DNA from: Candidatus Helarchaeota archaeon
GTDB taxonomy: Archaea > Asgardarchaeota > Lokiarchaeia > Helarchaeales > RDOG01
DNA: 64,000 nucleotides
Reading direction: 5' to 3'
NCBI GenBank assembly: GCA_019058315.1
Contig: JAHPZH010000003.1
Location: 620,451-684,450, forward strand
A program made the translations under genes and the position numbers. The notes under the pieces are model-generated. The model searched no databases. It was not told the DNA's origin and saw nothing but the letters and a program-made list of their open reading frames with translations. The number at the start of each line of letters is the position of its first letter. Positions within the stretch are counted from its first letter, which is position 1. Shown in pieces: positions 18,909 to 26,165 of this stretch.

Positions 18909-18972
18909 AATCTCAGATTTTTATTTTTATAGAAATAACAATATATAGGATGGAATTAAAGCTCGTAAAGGG

Positions 18973-19044
18973 TGAATCTCACCCTTTTAAAATGAGAACC
19001 TTTGTCTAAGGGGGATGCAAAATGATCTCAAAGGGTGAGATTCA
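18973..19044. other. Intergenic long-stem hairpin element, copy E1
   Basis: Perfect 15-bp inverted repeat TGAATCTCACCCTTT (18973-18987) / AAAGGGTGAGATTCA (19030-19044) with a 42-nt spacer. Confidence 0.7.
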
Positions 19045-19374
19045 ATATTTAATAATACAATATTTAACCCGATCAATCCATTATTGGTTGTTTTTTATAT
19101 TATTGATCACAATATTTAAAATTAATGTTCAGCTACGACAAATTTTAGGTTATGTTTGGTTCATAATTGAAAAATTTGTAGATTTATAGAGAGGTATTTG
19201 GATTTTTAAATTGACTAACTAGGTCTTTTATGAAGCACTAATGTTAGAAAATACCATAACATAATACAAGGAGTATAAATATTATTTTAAAAATAAAGTG
19301 GTGGTTTTATGTCGATATTATTTGTCTTTAAAAATAAGTTTAGATATCATGAGAACTTTAGGGAGTAAATAATA

Positions 19375-20091
19375 ATGGATTATATAAAAGTTCAGGGCTT
19401 AAAGTCCGATTCCAAAGGTTTTAACATTAAAGTTAAGGTATTAGAAAAGGTTTCTGATAGGATAGTAACTATTAAAAAGACGAATATGCAGAATAGGGTT
19501 GCAAATTTTCTTGTTGGAGATGAGACTGGTCAGATAACTTTGAATGTATGGGGAGATGAAATTGACAAAATTCCTATTAATGGAATTATTTCAATTCAAA
19601 AAAGCTATGTAAATGAATTCAACAATAAATTATTCATTAATATTGGAAAATACAGTAGTTGGGCCGAATCTAATGGAGAGATTAGTGTTAAAGAAACACC
19701 CCAACCTCCGAACGAATCAAAAAATAATTCGAATATTAAAATTTGTAGTGTTCCTACAAAAAAGAAAGGAATTAACTTAGATAAAGTCAAAGTATTAGAA
19801 ATTTCAAATATAAGACAAGTGAAAGTAAAAAAGGATGGTTCTGAGCATGAAGTCGCGGATGCTTTACTAGGAGACGACACCGGCTGTATAAAATGTGCTT
19901 TATGGGACGAAGATATTCGAAAAATTAAAGAGGATATGATCTTACGGATTCATAATGCTTATATAACAGAATATCGTGAAATTCCACAACTGAATTTAAG
20001 CAAGTTTAGCAAATACGAAATTCTACCACCAGAAGATCTTGATATAGACTTAGAAAATAACCTATCACTTCAAGAAGAAGCTCAGACATAA
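19375..20091 (+). CDS. Single-stranded DNA-binding protein/RPA-like, two OB folds (copy 2)
   Basis: Collinear paralog of 13759-14472, with a near-identical C-terminal OB fold. Confidence 0.85.
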   Translation: MDYIKVQGLKSDSKGFNIKVKVLEKVSDRIVTIKKTNMQNRVANFLVGDETGQITLNVWGDEIDKIPINGIISIQKSYVNEFNNKLFINIGKYSSWAESNGEISVKETPQPPNESKNNSNIKICSVPTKKKGINLDKVKVLEISNIRQVKVKKDGSEHEVADALLGDDTGCIKCALWDEDIRKIKEDMILRIHNAYITEYREIPQLNLSKFSKYEILPPEDLDIDLENNLSLQEEAQT

Positions 20092-20120
20092 TTTATATTG
20101 GTGCTTTATTATTTCTAATT

Positions 20121-20591
20121 ATGACTAGCAAATTAATTATTGAGCGGATTTCAGAGAGTAATTTTGACGATTTCATTTATTTAATTGAGAAATTAGCCGA
20201 ATACGAAAAACTTGACCCCCCTGATGCTCAAGCTAAAATAAGACTAAAGAGAGACGGGTTGTCTGAAGATCCCAAATATGAAGCTTATTTAGGCTTTTTG
20301 AATGGAAAGCCTATAGGTTATATAATCTTCTTTTTTACTTATTCATCCTTTCTCGCCCTGCCAACTCTCTATTTAGAAGATATTTTTATTCTAAAGGACT
20401 ACAGAAGAGAAGGTTTTGGACAGAAAATGTTTAATTTTTGTGTTAAACAAGCGCAAATAAGAGGATGCGGAAGGATGGAGTGGTGTGTTTTAACTTGGAA
20501 TGAACCTGCAATTAAATTTTATGAAAAAATTGGTGCATCACGTTTAAATTGGTATTTTTATAGATTAACTAAAGATGAATTCATAAAATAA
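20121..20591 (+). CDS. GNAT acetyltransferase (SSAT/diamine N-acetyltransferase-like)
   Basis: LAEYEKL, LYLEDIFI, YRREGFG, MEWCVLTWNEPAIKFYEKIGA. Confidence 0.9.
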   Translation: MTSKLIIERISESNFDDFIYLIEKLAEYEKLDPPDAQAKIRLKRDGLSEDPKYEAYLGFLNGKPIGYIIFFFTYSSFLALPTLYLEDIFILKDYRREGFGQKMFNFCVKQAQIRGCGRMEWCVLTWNEPAIKFYEKIGASRLNWYFYRLTKDEFIK

Positions 20592-20617
20592 AACAACGTT
20601 TAATTATTAAATAAGGG

Positions 20618-20691
20618 TGAACCTCACCCCCGCTAAAAAGGGGAATGTAGGGAGGAGGGGGTTAAAAAGTAGATTGCGGGGGCAAGGTTCA
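20618..20691 (-). other. Intergenic long-stem hairpin element, copy E2 (candidate structured RNA)
   Basis: 16-bp inverted repeat 20618-20633 / 20676-20691 with a 42-nt spacer. Its two mismatches become G.U pairs on the minus strand. Confidence 0.7.
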
Positions 20692-20784
20692 TAGTTATAT
20701 TCCTACGGTTTCCTAATAAATACCAATTCAATTTAGTATTTAAACTTTGCTAGTACAGATATATATATTTTTTTTGTGTATTGA

Positions 20785-21687
20785 TTATACTTTAATCGAG
20801 CTTGAACTTACTTTAACCAAAGTTGAAGAACATTCAGGACATAAATAGTCGCCTTCATTTTTAACTTTGAAAAACGTATTACAATTTGTACAAGTAAGCA
20901 CAACACTTTCGATTGTAGTAGGAGTGGCAACATTCAGTAATTTGGATACATAAACAATTTGATTTTCGCACCAGTTAACACCATCCTCGAATTTAGCTTG
21001 TTTTGCCCAAAATAATGCTTCTTTGAGATATTTCAGGGTCTCATGTTTATTTCCTGCTTGGAAATATGCATTAGCTTTATTTGCAGCATCATCGTATTTT
21101 TTATATGATACTTCGGAATGAATTTGAGTTTTTTCGTATTGTATTCCTGCTTCCTTCAATTTATCTATGTATTTAGGGTCAATTACCATCTTTACAAGAG
21201 TGGTAAAAGCTGATTCTACAGACTCACCAGATTTTGCACTAGTTTCAAAATAAAGAGTATTATATTTTTTAGCAAGATCTTGAGCTTCTTCCGTAGAAAC
21301 TTGTTGATCAGGTAAATCTATTTTATTACCTATGAGAATTAGAGGAATTTGTCCAGCGTGATCATAAACTTCTTTAAACCATTTTCCAATATTATAAAAA
21401 CTTTGACGACTAGTCTTATCAAAAACTACAAAACCACTAGTACTGCCATTATAATACATTGGACGGACATAACTAAACTGTTCTTGCCCTCCAGTATCCC
21501 AAATCTGGAATTTTACACTTTGATCATCAACATTTAGAATTTTTGTGCTAAAATCCACTCCAATAGTCATTTTATAATCGTCTTTAAATTTACCTTCTGT
21601 GTAACGAATGGAAAGAGCAGTCTTTCCTACTCCACCATCTCCCACTATAATACATTTTAAAATATAATCATATTTTTGAGAACTCAT
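20785..21687 (-). CDS. Rab-like small GTPase with C-terminal helical domain and zinc ribbon
   Basis: GDGGVGKT, YKMTIGVDF (RabF1-like), QIWDTGGQE, GNKID, ETSAK. C-terminal CTNC...CPEC. Confidence 0.9.
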   Translation of the reverse strand: MSSQKYDYILKCIIVGDGGVGKTALSIRYTEGKFKDDYKMTIGVDFSTKILNVDDQSVKFQIWDTGGQEQFSYVRPMYYNGSTSGFVVFDKTSRQSFYNIGKWFKEVYDHAGQIPLILIGNKIDLPDQQVSTEEAQDLAKKYNTLYFETSAKSGESVESAFTTLVKMVIDPKYIDKLKEAGIQYEKTQIHSEVSYKKYDDAANKANAYFQAGNKHETLKYLKEALFWAKQAKFEDGVNWCENQIVYVSKLLNVATPTTIESVVLTCTNCNTFFKVKNEGDYLCPECSSTLVKVSSSSIKV

Positions 21688-21945
21688 AAAAATAATTCTC
21701 CCTATATAGTGTCGAAAAGATTTAATAATTCAATGAATTTTTCTTAATAAATTTATTTATTAGATAGTGTTTAAAACTCTATTTGTTTTTATCCGATGGG
21801 ATTTTCGCAAATTGTAATAAAAAAAATAGGTTTTTCGCAAAAATTTATTTGAGATTTCTCGATTTTGGTTATAATATCTTAATCTAGACATAGTTAAAAA
21901 AAAAATCCATTTAAAAGAAGTATAATATTTTAAAATTTAAAAGAG

Positions 21946-23427
21946 TCAAGAACCGATAATTGAAATATATTTTTTATAAGCCTCTTCCCATTCTGAAACA
22001 TTTTGAGGAGAATACGATTCAATATCAAATGAATTTCTTACAATTGTCCGAAGATCAGAAAGAGTCGAAATTTCATTCGAATAGAAACATTGAACTAATA
22101 TATTACCGATAGATGTTGATTCAGAAGGTCCAGCCTTTACTTCTAAATTTGTAGCATTGGCAGCAAATTGATTTAAGAGTTTATTTTTGGATCCTCCTCC
22201 AAAGATATGGAATTTATTGATAGATTTCTTTGTAATTTCTTTTAATTTTATGTATACTTCTTTATATTTACACGCTAATGACTCGAGAATACATCTTGTA
22301 ATTTCGCCAATACTATTTGGTATTTTTTGATTAGTTTTTTTGCAATATTGTTTTATCGTTTCAGGCATATTCATAGGATTTAAAAATACAGGATCCTCAG
22401 GATTAATAAAAGAGTTAAATGGTTTAGCTTTCTTGGCCTCTTTCGTCAAATAATCATATGAAAATTCCTTGCCTGATTGTTCCCAAATTCTTTTACATTC
22501 TTGAAGCAACCATAACCCTATAATATTTTTAAGGAAGCGAATAGTGTTTTTAACTCCACCTTCATTTGTAAAATTGTATTTTAATGCTATATCCGATGTA
22601 TTTGGGGCATCTAACTCTACCCCCATAAGGGCCCATGTTCCACTGCTAAGATACAAGAAATCGCTACCTTGGGCAGGAACAGCGGCTATTGCGGCAGCAG
22701 TATCGTGAGATGCAGTTGCAATAACTGGTATTTCACTCATACCTGTTTCATTCGCTATTGCTGGCAATAAATTTCCAATTTTAGTGCCTGGCTGAATAAT
22801 TTCGGGAAACATATCCAGTTCCAACCCTAATTTTTGAATTATAGTTTTTGACCAATTTTTAGCTTTTAAATCATACATTTGGGAAGTAGATGTAAGAGTA
22901 TATTCACAAAAGGCTTTTTTTGTGAATAAATAATTAAAGAAGTCTGCAATCATTAAATATTTTCTCGCTATTTTTAGAAGTGGTGATTTAGAAAGGACCA
23001 TTGAATATAATTGAACTAAACTATTGATTTGAATGAATTGTAGACCAGAAATTTGAAAAAGTTGTTTTTTTGGAATAAGCTCGGTTAATTTTTCTATAAC
23101 TCCATTTGTTCTTTTATCTCGATAATTATAGGGATTACCTACTACCATACCGTTACTATTTAATAAAACGAAATCAACTCCCCAAGAATCAATACCTATA
23201 CTATCTACATTTCCATGTTTTTGAGCAGTTTCGAAAAGCCCTTTTTTCATTTTATCAAAAAATCCTAACACATTCCAGAATAAGGAATCAAATATCCGAG
23301 TTATACCGGTTTCGAAACGATAAATTTCTTCTATTTCTAATTTTTTTTCTTTTTTAGATAAAATTCCTAATATTGCTCTACCACTCGAAGCTCCTAAATC
23401 ATATGCAAGAATTTTCTTATCAGTCAT
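21946..23427 (-). CDS. rhaB: Rhamnulokinase-like FGGY carbohydrate kinase
   Basis: DLGASSGR, GIDSWGVDF, YRDKRT, SHDTAAA, SSGTWAL, FTNEGG, GLWLLQEC. Confidence 0.85.
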   Translation of the reverse strand: MTDKKILAYDLGASSGRAILGILSKKEKKLEIEEIYRFETGITRIFDSLFWNVLGFFDKMKKGLFETAQKHGNVDSIGIDSWGVDFVLLNSNGMVVGNPYNYRDKRTNGVIEKLTELIPKKQLFQISGLQFIQINSLVQLYSMVLSKSPLLKIARKYLMIADFFNYLFTKKAFCEYTLTSTSQMYDLKAKNWSKTIIQKLGLELDMFPEIIQPGTKIGNLLPAIANETGMSEIPVIATASHDTAAAIAAVPAQGSDFLYLSSGTWALMGVELDAPNTSDIALKYNFTNEGGVKNTIRFLKNIIGLWLLQECKRIWEQSGKEFSYDYLTKEAKKAKPFNSFINPEDPVFLNPMNMPETIKQYCKKTNQKIPNSIGEITRCILESLACKYKEVYIKLKEITKKSINKFHIFGGGSKNKLLNQFAANATNLEVKAGPSESTSIGNILVQCFYSNEISTLSDLRTIVRNSFDIESYSPQNVSEWEEAYKKYISIIGS

Positions 23428-23565
23428 TTTAAATCATCAAATTCCTTGGTTTATGAGATCTAAAAAATATTTTTGATAAATTTAAGTTCAATTTTTTCTT
23501 AATATTTATATTCCTCATTAATTACTTAATTTTAAATTAACAAAATGCGTAACGGGTAAAAAAAA

Positions 23566-24279
23566 TTGAAGAATACTGAATTTAAATTGGTTTTTTTTGA
23601 TTTTGATCAAACAATAATTAATTCTGGAGTAGGTTTTTCTGCTGCATATAAAAAATTAGCTGAAAAATTTGAATCAATATTAAAAATCCAAGGTTTACAG
23701 TTAGATTCAGAAGTAATCTTGAATAAAATCCTCACTAAAGACAAGGAATTTAATAAAAATAAAATTTATGATCGTGATTTATGGTGGAACCCGATTTTAA
23801 AGGAATTTAATGTGAAACAAGAATTAAGTCAAGATAAAATCAAAAGACTAACGGAGACTTATTGGAATACAGTTATTGAATACACAGAACCTTATCCAGA
23901 TACATTTGAAATTTTAGATTATTTAAAGGATAAATATAAACTAGCCCTTATATCAGATACTGATGGATTGAAAGGAATGAAAAAAATAAGGATTCAAAAA
24001 AGTAATATTGCACAATATTTCGATTATATAATTGTTCCAGGTGATGATACGAAATCAGTTAAACCAGATCCGGAACCTTTTTTACGGATTGCTAAACAGG
24101 CTAAAGTCAAACCCTCTAAAAAAGAATGTTTAATGATTGGTGATAAACCCTTTACTGACATTAAAGGAGCAAAAAACGCTGGATTTACAACAGTTTTAAT
24201 TCATCGAGCGGATTGGAATGTAGACCCAGTTCCGGATTATCTCATTAAAGAATTGAGGGAATTAAAAGAAATTCTTTAA
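23566..24279 (+). CDS. HAD-superfamily hydrolase
   Basis: FDFDQT motif I, KPDPEPF, MIGDKPFTDIKGA. Confidence 0.9.
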   Translation: MKNTEFKLVFFDFDQTIINSGVGFSAAYKKLAEKFESILKIQGLQLDSEVILNKILTKDKEFNKNKIYDRDLWWNPILKEFNVKQELSQDKIKRLTETYWNTVIEYTEPYPDTFEILDYLKDKYKLALISDTDGLKGMKKIRIQKSNIAQYFDYIIVPGDDTKSVKPDPEPFLRIAKQAKVKPSKKECLMIGDKPFTDIKGAKNAGFTTVLIHRADWNVDPVPDYLIKELRELKEIL

Positions 24280-24381
24280 TTTGAAGATAAAATCTATCAA
24301 ATCTAAAATGAATTTCATTTCTTTTCTTTCGGATATGGATATATTCATTCCATAAGTTAGATTTCCTAGAGATGCTATCAT
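24262..24381 (-). CDS. Candidate 39-aa small protein (below the ORF-track cutoff)
   Basis: AGGTGATAAAAAA-ATG strong SD. Peptide MIASLGNLTYGMNISISERKEMKFILDLIDFIFKLKNFF. Confidence 0.4.
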   Translation of the reverse strand: MIASLGNLTYGMNISISERKEMKFILDLIDFIFKLKNFF

Positions 24382-24491
24382 TTTTTTATCACCTTCATTT
24401 TCAATTTTTTTTTTTTTTTTTATTTCCTAAAATTTAACCAATTTTTTATAAAAAAGATAAAAATTTCAAATTATAATAAAAAAATTTTGGA

Positions 24492-24896
24492 TTATTCTAT
24501 ATCTACTGTACGATCAGGTTCTTTTTTTGGTAAATGAACAGTCAATATCCCTAGTTTTAATGTTGCATAAACTTTTTCTGCTACCACATTTGGTGGGAGT
24601 GGATAAAAATGTGGTTCATCATCAATTTCAATGGTTAATGTATCTGCACTTGCTTTAGCACTAATTTTATCTTTTTCAATACCTGGGACTTCAATTTGAA
24701 GTACATATTCATCTTCTTTATCTTCATAATTGTAAAATGGAAATCCCATTCTTAAACGTCTCATGATACGACCAATGGGAGATTTAAAACCAAACAAAGA
24801 CCCGAATAAATTAAATTTTGAATGGTGATGTGCCCCTAGATGGTGTGGTTCCATTGAGTCGTCCCATCTTTTAAACCATTTTCTAAATTCGCTCAT
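24492..24896 (-). CDS. Hsp20/alpha-crystallin small heat-shock protein
   Basis: IEVPGIEKDKI, LPPNV...ATLKLGILTVHLPK. GGAGGTGA SD. Confidence 0.88.
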   Translation of the reverse strand: MSEFRKWFKRWDDSMEPHHLGAHHHSKFNLFGSLFGFKSPIGRIMRRLRMGFPFYNYEDKEDEYVLQIEVPGIEKDKISAKASADTLTIEIDDEPHFYPLPPNVVAEKVYATLKLGILTVHLPKKEPDRTVDIE

Positions 24897-24920
24897 TTTT
24901 TTCTTTCACCTCCTTCATTT

Positions 24921-25442
24921 CTATTCAATTGGTATATTTACAAATTTCATATCTTTCTCAATTTCTTTTATTTTTTCTTGTTTCTTTTCAATAACGTGAT
25001 TAATCTTTGAAAGTTGTTCTTCAAGGTAATTTTTTCGTCTTTCTAACCTCTTAATTTCTTTTTTAAGGTGATATATTCTTCTCATATCAGTATCTTCTCT
25101 GGGAAAGTCAAAGAAGAAAAAATTTGAAAACTTTTGATGAAATTTCTCAAATCCATCAATCATGTCATCATCCACAATATTTTCTAGCTTTTTTTCTCCT
25201 TCATCAGTTAAACTGTATTTTCTTTTATAGTCATCCCCAGATTCTTCTTGAATCCAATTTCTTTTGAGAAATTTTTTAAGAATTGGATATATAGTACCTG
25301 ATTTAGCTTTGAAAGAAGTATCTCCAAACTCTTTTTTTAGTTCATTTATGATTTCGTTACCATAAAGAGGTTTTTCTTTTAAAACTCTAAGCACAAGTAA
25401 TTCAATTGGACTTATTCTATGATGTTTTCCACGATAATACAT
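24921..25442 (-). CDS. PadR-family transcription regulator with C-terminal coiled coil
   Basis: LYGNEII, SGTIYPILKK, RKYSLTDEG. Confidence 0.9.
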   Translation of the reverse strand: MYYRGKHHRISPIELLVLRVLKEKPLYGNEIINELKKEFGDTSFKAKSGTIYPILKKFLKRNWIQEESGDDYKRKYSLTDEGEKKLENIVDDDMIDGFEKFHQKFSNFFFFDFPREDTDMRRIYHLKKEIKRLERRKNYLEEQLSKINHVIEKKQEKIKEIEKDMKFVNIPIE

Positions 25443-25462
25443 ATTTTATCATTTTTTACTTT

Positions 25463-25499
25463 TGTAGATGTCTACATTATTATAGTAGAATTCTACTAT
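25463..25499. promoter_or_regulatory. Two tandem palindromic operators (GTAGAnnTCTAC) upstream of padR-hsp20
   Basis: TGTAGATGTCTACA (25463-25476) and ATAGTAGAATTCTACTAT (25482-25499), cores 21 bp apart. They abut a minus-strand TTTAAATA TATA-like box at about 25498-25505. Confidence 0.75.
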
Positions 25500-25664
25500 T
25501 TAAATGTTTAGGAAAAAAGTAATTTAGAAAAAGTAATTAGATATATCAAAAAATAAAATAAACAAATTAAAATAGGGTTGAAAGGGTTTCTGTAAAAATA
25601 AGAGTAAAAAGGCGTTGTTATTAGTTAAATCCATAATTAATTATCATGATAAGGGATTTAAGCC

Positions 25665-25743
25665 GGCCTACCACTTTGAAGAAGGGAGGGAGGGGATAAT
25701 TATAAAGGAGAGGTAAAAAAAGCAGTTTTCAAAGAAGTAAGCC
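25665..25743 (-). other. Intergenic long-stem hairpin element, copy E3 (candidate structured RNA)
   Basis: Arms 25665-25680 / 25728-25743 form 15 of 16 pairs on the minus strand, including 2 G.U. 47-nt C/U-rich loop similar to E2. Confidence 0.55.
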
Positions 25744-26165
25744 TTTTGCCATCCCATTACCATTACTTAATTATTGGATTTTTATATTTTTTTTAATAAC
25801 CTCTTTATAATAATTTTTCCTATTATAATTTCTTTGGTATTAATCTTTTTCCTCACTCTACAGAATAATTATTTATCCTTCGAGAAATTTATAATACCTC
25901 GATATAATAACCAACTTAAAAGTATATATACCTTATGAGTCCAATTATACGAAAAACCATACTTTTCTACACATGATTAGTCAAAAAAATGTGCATGTAT
26001 GCCTTTTAAATAATATAAAGAGCTTAAGTCAATTCAATTTTACTTAATTTTAATTTTTATCATTTTTTTAATTATACACTAATTAAATCAATTTTATTCG
26101 ATTACTAAGAAAAAAACTAATTAAATTCATAAGAGCGAAGATTTGTTTAAGAATTCTTTATTATT

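Follow-up and report, generated by a model that had tools for sequence, protein, structure and literature searches.

Intergenic hairpins of a Candidatus Helarchaeota archaeon as probable members of a lineage-specific structured small-RNA family, with a bulge–helix–bulge motif in sister genomes

Asgard archaea are the closest prokaryotic relatives of eukaryotes, and to our knowledge very few non-coding RNAs are known in them. The known range of RNAs that the splicing endonuclease acts on comprises at present tRNA, rRNA and two mRNAs. The archaeal substrate is a helix of four base pairs between two bulges of three nucleotides each (PMC7714728), termed the bulge–helix–bulge (BHB) motif and found in tRNA introns (that of tRNA-Trp being a functional C/D box RNA), in the 16S/23S processing stems and in the intron of the 5′ untranslated region (5′-UTR) of Haloferax HVO_1309 (PMC7714728; PMC12558985). 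A second group of described systems acts on translation: in Listeria the multicopy LhrC RNAs, and in Staphylococcus the UCCC-motif RNAs RsaE, RNAIII and SprD, mask Shine–Dalgarno (SD) sequences with C/U-rich loops (PMC4132741, PMC2790875), and sRNA41 of Methanosarcina mazei masks ribosome binding sites (reviewed in PMC5867862). Here we analyse three hairpins, E1, E2 and E3, that a first reading of the sequence (the original prediction) had singled out in a Candidatus Helarchaeota genome (GCA_019058315.1; 5.8 Mb, 94% complete), within a 64,000-nt stretch on contig C11 (JAHPZH010000003.1, positions 620,451–684,450; hereafter the window) that lies in an A+T-rich region of about 30% G+C. We consider it probable that E1, E2 and, with less assurance, E3 are genes, or what remains of genes, for structured small RNAs (sRNAs) of about 100–130 nt that are read from the minus (C/U-rich) strand and belong to a lineage-specific family, whose sister-genome members would be excised as circles at a BHB motif.

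The three elements are intergenic and all lie on the minus strand:
20603–20716, minus: E2, a full family unit with a leader, a 16-bp stem (20618–20633/20676–20691), a 42-nt C/U-rich loop (20634–20675) and a 3′ UCACCC tail.
18964–19067, minus: E1, a diverged copy with a 15-bp stem (18973–18987/19030–19044).
25639–25772, minus: E3, a probable, strongly diverged copy with an outer helix (GGGAU/AUCCC), an A-rich internal loop, a 16-bp stem (25665–25680/25728–25743) and a loop containing U7 and CCCCUCCCUCCC.

The E1 and E2 hairpins (18973–19044 and 20618–20691) are present as originally described, and both fold better than dinucleotide-shuffled sequences on either strand (z from −3.0 to −6.1; −6.1 for E2 and −5.2 for E1 on the minus strand). 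They share a 17-nt word, AAGGGTGAAYCTCACCC, which occurs twice in the window against 0.13 expected, and the compensatory differences reported between their stems are real. The loop of E1 lacks the CCUCC core and forms a small helix of its own. The E3 hairpin (25665–25743) exists as well, but its energy is no better than that of dinucleotide shuffles (z about 0).

When the stem word was used as the query of a first-pass genome search for E1 and E2, just one extra copy was found. The E2 loop, by contrast, retrieved 8 copies whose stems are mutually unlike; a 33-nt loop core is identical in four host-genome copies with differing stems, E2 among them. Three covariance models were built: R1 from an alignment (A1) of these 8 core copies of the host genome, R2 from a MAFFT alignment of 12 copies from relatives, which did not include E3, and R3 from a training alignment that did. 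Genome-wide, R1 detected five further diverged copies beyond the core, including E1 (39.7 bits, genome-wide E = 6e-6), and the host genome holds about 13 dispersed copies (13–14 by covariance models). E2 scored 113 bits with R1 and 50 bits with R2; E1 was not recovered by R2 at E ≤ 0.01. E3 scored 24.9 bits with R2, by which it was unseen (E = 3.6e-4 in 164 kb, roughly 0.01 genome-wide), and 18.3 bits with R1; its high R3 score was discarded as evidence because E3 was part of the training alignment. Given these scores and a fold at shuffle level, E3 is a probable but weak member, and the uncertainty expressed about it in the original prediction was justified.

The family extends beyond the host genome. 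Five same-order genomes yielded 1–2, 1, 11, 9 and 8 copies with the covariance models, and R2, scanned against a phylum sample of 150 genomes, picked up a single copy apiece in two genomes from a different Asgard family, with the same frame and an extra small hairpin within the loop. In a class sample of 150 genomes, 127 of them from a large sister family, R1 matched four same-order genomes (E from 2e-8 to 1e-4) and, weakly, one of the 127. R2 counted 10 copies in the host genome; in four relatives the numbers were 9, 7, 7 and 2. Within the Asgard phylum, the RNA family is conserved in no fewer than three families. The covariance-model search initially suggested thus returns homologs in other Asgard genomes and none in Rfam: Rfam 15 gave no window match at gathering thresholds and nothing over the elements at E ≤ 5. 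An exact loop-word match in a Helarchaeota metagenome-assembled genome (JALGVI01) is a true homolog; exact matches in three metagenomes, two other genomes and two viral sequences lack the fold and were dismissed as chance. Separately, three genomes of the large sister family carry long hairpins with U-run and CCCUCCUCC(C)UA loops that lack the GUG/CAC junction (loci L083, L084 and L086; R3 E about 1e-4), which may be a more distant Lokiarchaeia branch of the same theme.

The conserved part of the family is its loop, and the variable part its stem. The loop is pyrimidine-rich and consists of a U-run, CCCCUCCUCCCUACAUU and a second U-run; over its 42–50 nt the layout is U-run, CCCC(AACCCC)CUCCUCCCUACAUU, U-run, with CCCCUCCUCCC unpaired in the predicted folds and about 30 positions conserved across families. 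In the relatives the loop reads CUG-U6-AA-CCCC-AA-CCCCCUCCUCCCUACAUUUCC-U5-GA, and their stems are wholly different yet paired. When the 12 copies from relatives, aligned with MAFFT, were scored against a hand-drawn three-helix structure, 82% of the cells were paired, as compared with 64.5% after shuffling and 39–47% after sliding, and 20 of the 25 pairs showed double changes, a result equalled by none of 500 shuffles. In an alignment of 39 copies, 84.7% of the cells were paired (56.4% shuffled), with 93% in the inner stem, and all 25 modelled pairs showed double changes; since that alignment was fitted by a model to its own structure and the copies within a genome are related, its shuffle statistics overstate independence, and the 12-copy figures are safer. 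The original prediction of an undescribed, structured, multi-copy element with genuine covariation is therefore upheld, with some 13 copies here and compensatory change at every modelled pair.

The same distribution of conservation bears on the possibility that the hairpins are integron-type attC sites folding as single-stranded DNA, which might be suspected from an imperfect palindrome of attC size beside a GNAT gene and from RYYYAAC and GTTRRRY words in two copies. Neither E1 nor E2 nor most other copies contain these words; in attC sites, the stem ends are conserved and the loop is variable, the reverse of what is seen in this family; and neither a cassette array nor intI occurs in the neighbourhoods examined. 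With core sites that are not conserved and a centre that is, the attC reading was rejected as having next to no likelihood.

Outside the host genome, all lineages share a fixed layout at the base of the stem. Its 5′ strand runs from the outer helix through RGUG and 3 nt (AAA, AGA, AUA or GAA) to the inner helix, and its 3′ strand from the inner helix through CACY and 3 nt (AAA, AAU or AUA) to the outer helix. The two 3-nt bulges thus lie on opposite strands, each 3′ of its half of the central helix, and the 5′ bulge measures 3 nt in 26 of the 27 copies concerned. The central helix covaries (GUG/CAC to GCG/CGC, AUG/CAU or GAG/CUC): among the 12 relatives, pairing is 100% at three of its four positions, and at the fourth the pair is A-U in four copies, G-C in three, G.U in two and something else in three. 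The flanking helices are paired at 72.5% (outer, 9 of 10 pairs compensatory) and 86% (inner, 10 of 11). Because this layout matches the definition of an endonuclease substrate, the stem base of the sister-genome copies is, in its predicted pairing, a canonical BHB motif. This motif, which tells more about the family than any other feature, did not figure in the original prediction.

The geometry used here is that of genuine introns: a routine that places the cuts after the second bulge nucleotide recovers exactly the introns assigned by ARAGORN to the host tRNA-Met (19 nt), tRNA-Ile (63 nt) and tRNA-Ser (138 nt) genes. A dense tRNA cluster on host contig C3 (627669–631783), in which ARAGORN places introns of up to 138 nt in nine genes, several at non-canonical positions, fits the heavy interruption reported for Asgard tRNA genes. 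The host genome also has genes for the enzymes, namely two EndA-family open reading frames (ORFs) and one RtcB, and Asgard EndA is reported to be of the broad-specificity (alpha-beta)2 type (PMC5829648).

In the host genome itself, a canonical BHB motif is found in just one copy (C6:211490–211612), the loop of which is A/U-rich. The core copies, E2 included, keep a 3-bp remnant (GGU/ACC) with a 5′ bulge of 7–11 nt and a 3′ bulge of 4 nt, E1 has no remnant, and E3 has A-rich internal loops of 7 nt. Judged by their stem bases, the window copies are derived forms. The UCACCC found at the start of E1 and E2 is a remnant of the CACY half-helix. It had been read as part of an alternative hairpin acting as a switch; the pairing concerned (GGGUGA-NNN-UCACCC) does exist in E1, E2 and one other copy, but with 3 of about 13 copies and no relative showing it, the switch is not a feature of the family.

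Four lines of evidence mark the C/U-rich strand (minus in the window) as the one more likely to yield the RNA. On that strand, G.U pairs outnumber A.C pairs 37 to 10 across the 39 copies (two inner helices) and 14 to 3 in the host core copies; the exact word TTTAWATA lies upstream of 9 of the 39 copies, as compared with 1 of 39 on the other strand; the orthologous loci described below are co-oriented; and the handedness of the BHB motif is correct on the C-rich strand only. Selection on the minus strand had been proposed because four of five stem mismatches in E2 and E3 become G.U pairs only there. The count is correct (both mismatches of E2 and two of the three in E3, the third being U.U), and the family-wide figures bear the proposal out. 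Candidate promoters in the window are as follows:
20737–20744, minus: TTTAAATA, TATA box of E2, with AAAG before it and a start predicted near 20713.
19113–19120, minus: TTTAAATA, a possible promoter of E1, 68 nt upstream of its stem, in a placement not common to other copies.

The box of E2 recurs exactly in three paralogs, in each case 22–23 nt upstream of a conserved leader start (GGAAG/GGAAA/GAAAA), and because of this spacing E2 and these three close paralogs would probably be primary transcripts from a TATA box of their own. The loss of the BHB motif together with a TATA box at a fixed distance suggests that the family has become promoter-driven in the host, where excision may no longer be needed.

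Were the G-rich (plus) strand the functional one, we would be dealing with a hairpin terminator, or else with an RNA whose loop is purine-rich, SD-like or able to form a G-quadruplex. Three close paralogs do have T7–T8 directly after the hairpin, the loop would carry four G-runs, and E1 folds slightly better on the plus strand than on the minus strand. However, no such T-run follows the hairpin in E1, E2, E3 or any relative, the stem mismatches would be A.C on this strand, the handedness of the BHB motif would be wrong and the TATA boxes are 9 to 1 for the other strand, which makes a functional plus strand very unlikely.

As to what a minus-strand RNA might bind, the host 16S rRNA ends in GGAUCACCUCCU, with the tail CACCUCCU, and the loop core contains CCUCCU, which resembles this tail; the earlier description of the loop as anti-SD-like and flanked by U-tracts holds. 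In the host genome, GGAGG, GAGG and GGUG peak 9–14 nt before start codons. The organism therefore uses SD pairing, and the loop could mask such sites. The conservation of about 30 loop positions across families speaks for a protein partner, or for tertiary contacts, in addition, and the flanking U-runs would suit an Sm-like protein. The loop also contains an invariant word, CUACAU (20645–20650 in E2), whose opposite strand, AUGUAG, reads as a start followed by a stop beside GGGAGGAGG; this is probably coincidental.

We propose the following mechanism. A long helix of free sequence would hold out a single-stranded loop of 42–50 nt. In the sister genomes, where excision at the BHB motif is the most likely mode of biogenesis, EndA would cut within both bulges and thereby free a piece of 75–95 nt made up of the inner stem, the loop and CACY-AA; RtcB would close this piece into a dumbbell-shaped circular RNA, as with other such products, and ligation of the two outer strands would leave a small hairpin. 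The exposed loop would bind purine-rich SD-like sequences or a protein that recognizes pyrimidine or U-tracts, such as SmAP, and the RNA would act as a translational regulator or as a sponge. In its boldest form, which we put forward as a speculation and think rather unlikely, the copies would be free-standing BHB cassettes from which the tRNA-splicing machinery makes dumbbell circles, the 45-nt anti-SD-mimic loop titrating ribosome-binding sites or a pyrimidine-binding protein. Such cassettes would be a prokaryotic counterpart of the circular RNA sponges of eukaryotes, and a candidate reservoir from which BHB introns came to enter Asgard tRNA genes, an event still unexplained (bioRxiv 10.64898/2026.10.13.758758).

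Other identities and features were considered for the hairpins and set aside. A leader–loop pseudoknot was dropped as a family trait because it is absent from E2 and the relatives; the leader word GGUUAAAAA is complementary to loop UUUUUAACC in 4–5 host copies, with partly matching changes in two diverged ones. Coding potential was rejected, since the 33-codon frame opened by a leader ATG in one copy is broken in others by A7/A8 length changes and stops. For arms acting as miRNA-like or Argonaute guides, the sole near-perfect genome match was one of 18 nt with 1 mismatch (E = 0.11). A Y RNA was dismissed, the TROVE-domain protein (PF05731) not being found in the 94%-complete genome, as was a kink-turn RNA of the C/D or H/ACA type: the AAA bulge is followed by a Watson–Crick helix (GG.../...CC), with no GA on the 3′ strand and no G.A pairs.

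The placement of the copies was then compared between genomes. Orthologous copies lie downstream of the same co-oriented multi-zinc-ribbon gene in three genera (this gene has no ortholog in the host genome) and downstream of a co-oriented D-aminoacyl-tRNA deacylase gene in two. In the window, E1 has an unknown ORF on one side and an OB-fold/SSB-like gene on the other, E2 is flanked by a GNAT acetyltransferase gene and by a Ras-family GTPase gene (3′ end), and E3 by a Get3/ArsA-like ATPase gene and padR-hsp20. Two family copies are found downstream of co-oriented Ras-family GTPase genes (window 20785–21687, minus; L047:445–960), and genes for MIT-domain, ubiquitin-like and RING-finger proteins are among the other neighbours. 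This neighbourhood may be due to chance, these gene classes being abundant in Asgard genomes.

The proximity to upstream genes raises the possibility that the element is not an independent RNA but a cis-acting 3′-end element of the preceding gene, either a terminator or stabiliser in the 3′-UTR or a 3′-UTR intron whose excision leaves a small protective hairpin. Indeed, read in the C-rich orientation, about 15 of 22 copies come after a gene of like orientation, often 17–65 nt past its stop codon (E2 comes 94 nt after the Ras-family GTPase gene), most sister-genome copies have no evident promoter, and BHB excision would leave the outer helix as a hairpin of 10–11 bp. Yet 7 copies, E1 among them, have a divergent upstream gene, and the 15:7 bias is not significant; a terminator has no need of a 30-nt conserved loop, and neither the exact TATA box at a fixed distance in 4 host copies nor the tandem clusters of two or three copies fit a role at the 3′ end of a gene. 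We therefore regard a cis-acting element as improbable, and retain a family of independent sRNAs as the preferred reading.

Copies on the same strand tend to be clustered: three lie within 6.8 kb in the window (18964–25772), three within 3 kb on host contig C1 (428537–431422), and, in relatives, three within 0.7 kb (L062:1501–2179) and two within 0.5 kb elsewhere. This clustering suggests local duplication. At C1:22240–22380, about eight units of 21 nt (GTGTCCGRAAAGTCTGAATYC), repeated in tandem, adjoin a family copy.

Such a distribution could also be that of a palindromic repeat acting at the DNA level and devoid of RNA function, similar to REP or PATE elements or to a miniature inverted-repeat transposable element (MITE), and mobilized by a transposase in trans. 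The copies are intergenic, multiple, locally clustered and found in both orientations relative to genes; they have expanded to about 13 in the large host genome, as compared with 1–11 in relatives; one is decayed (C10:181404–181519, with the loop and 5′ arm retained and the 3′ arm unpaired), and three are near-identical, flanks included. On the other hand, the arms differ and the loop is conserved, which is the opposite of what is expected of transposase-recognised ends, the G.U pairs are strand-asymmetric, and both the 4-bp helix and the 3-nt bulges are exactly preserved while covarying, as fits an RNA-processing signal. Moreover, orthologous positions are common to different genera, no transposase or integrase was found among the neighbouring genes examined, and viral contigs gave no family match. 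No target-site duplication was seen by eye, an inspection that was not systematic, and empty sites were not searched. The MITE alternative retained in the original prediction is thus hard to reconcile with the variable arms, the lack of a nearby transposase or integrase and the syntenic copies, and we hold a mobile repeat to be improbable as well.

Several observations, in addition to the relatedness of the copies in the 39-copy alignment noted above, weigh against a family of processed sRNAs. Transcription, strand, ends, cleavage, circularisation and loop target are all inferred from the sequence. E1–E3 depart from the canonical BHB motif, with its 4-bp helix and 3-nt bulges, their bulges being 4–11 nt long or absent, and the processing step may therefore not apply to the window copies. 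No consistent promoter was found upstream of the copies in sister genomes. T-runs of at least 5 after the element do not discriminate between the two strands (13 and 15 of the 39 copies), and the T5–T7 runs of the loop itself could terminate archaeal transcription. Finally, a genome search with the 28-nt loop found no extended complementary target, pairing at 25 or more of the 28 positions being seen just with the opposite strand of the family's own copies, and SD pairing alone does not account for the conservation of about 30 loop positions.

The interest of the family lies in an unusually clean covariation signal that is uncatalogued in Rfam, and the covariance models built here can be used to annotate it in other assemblies. 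If the BHB motif is used, the range of the splicing endonuclease would widen to take in a dedicated class of regulatory RNAs that are multi-copy and probably circular. The sister genomes, with what would be the processed form, and the host, with a putatively promoter-driven form devoid of the motif, offer a natural comparison.

With REP/BIME, Correia, RUP and MITE elements, the family shares short, intergenic, hairpin-forming copies that are multiple and sometimes clustered, but it differs from them by its variable arms, the lack of an associated transposase, cross-genus synteny and strand-asymmetric pairing. Its resemblance to LhrC, the UCCC-motif RNAs and sRNA41 is one of organization, with multi-copy paralogs in an A+T-rich genome and loop-exposed C-rich motifs complementary to the GGAGG-type sites that the host uses. 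There is no sequence or structural homology to these RNAs, the loop is far longer (42–50 nt, about 30 positions of it conserved), and the BHB processing motif has no counterpart among them. As compared with known BHB substrates, the family stands outside tRNA, rRNA and the known mRNAs, is multi-copy and intergenic, and inverts the usual arrangement in that the conserved part is the 'intron', the 'exons' being just the two strands of a helix; furthermore, the window copies have lost the motif, and the cleavage and circle proposed for the family are predictions from sequence. The sister-genome copies nevertheless share with these substrates the 4-bp helix, the two 3-nt bulges, the two flanking helices and the strand geometry of the host tRNA introns, and the part predicted to be excised, at 75–95 nt, falls within the size range of known circularised introns.

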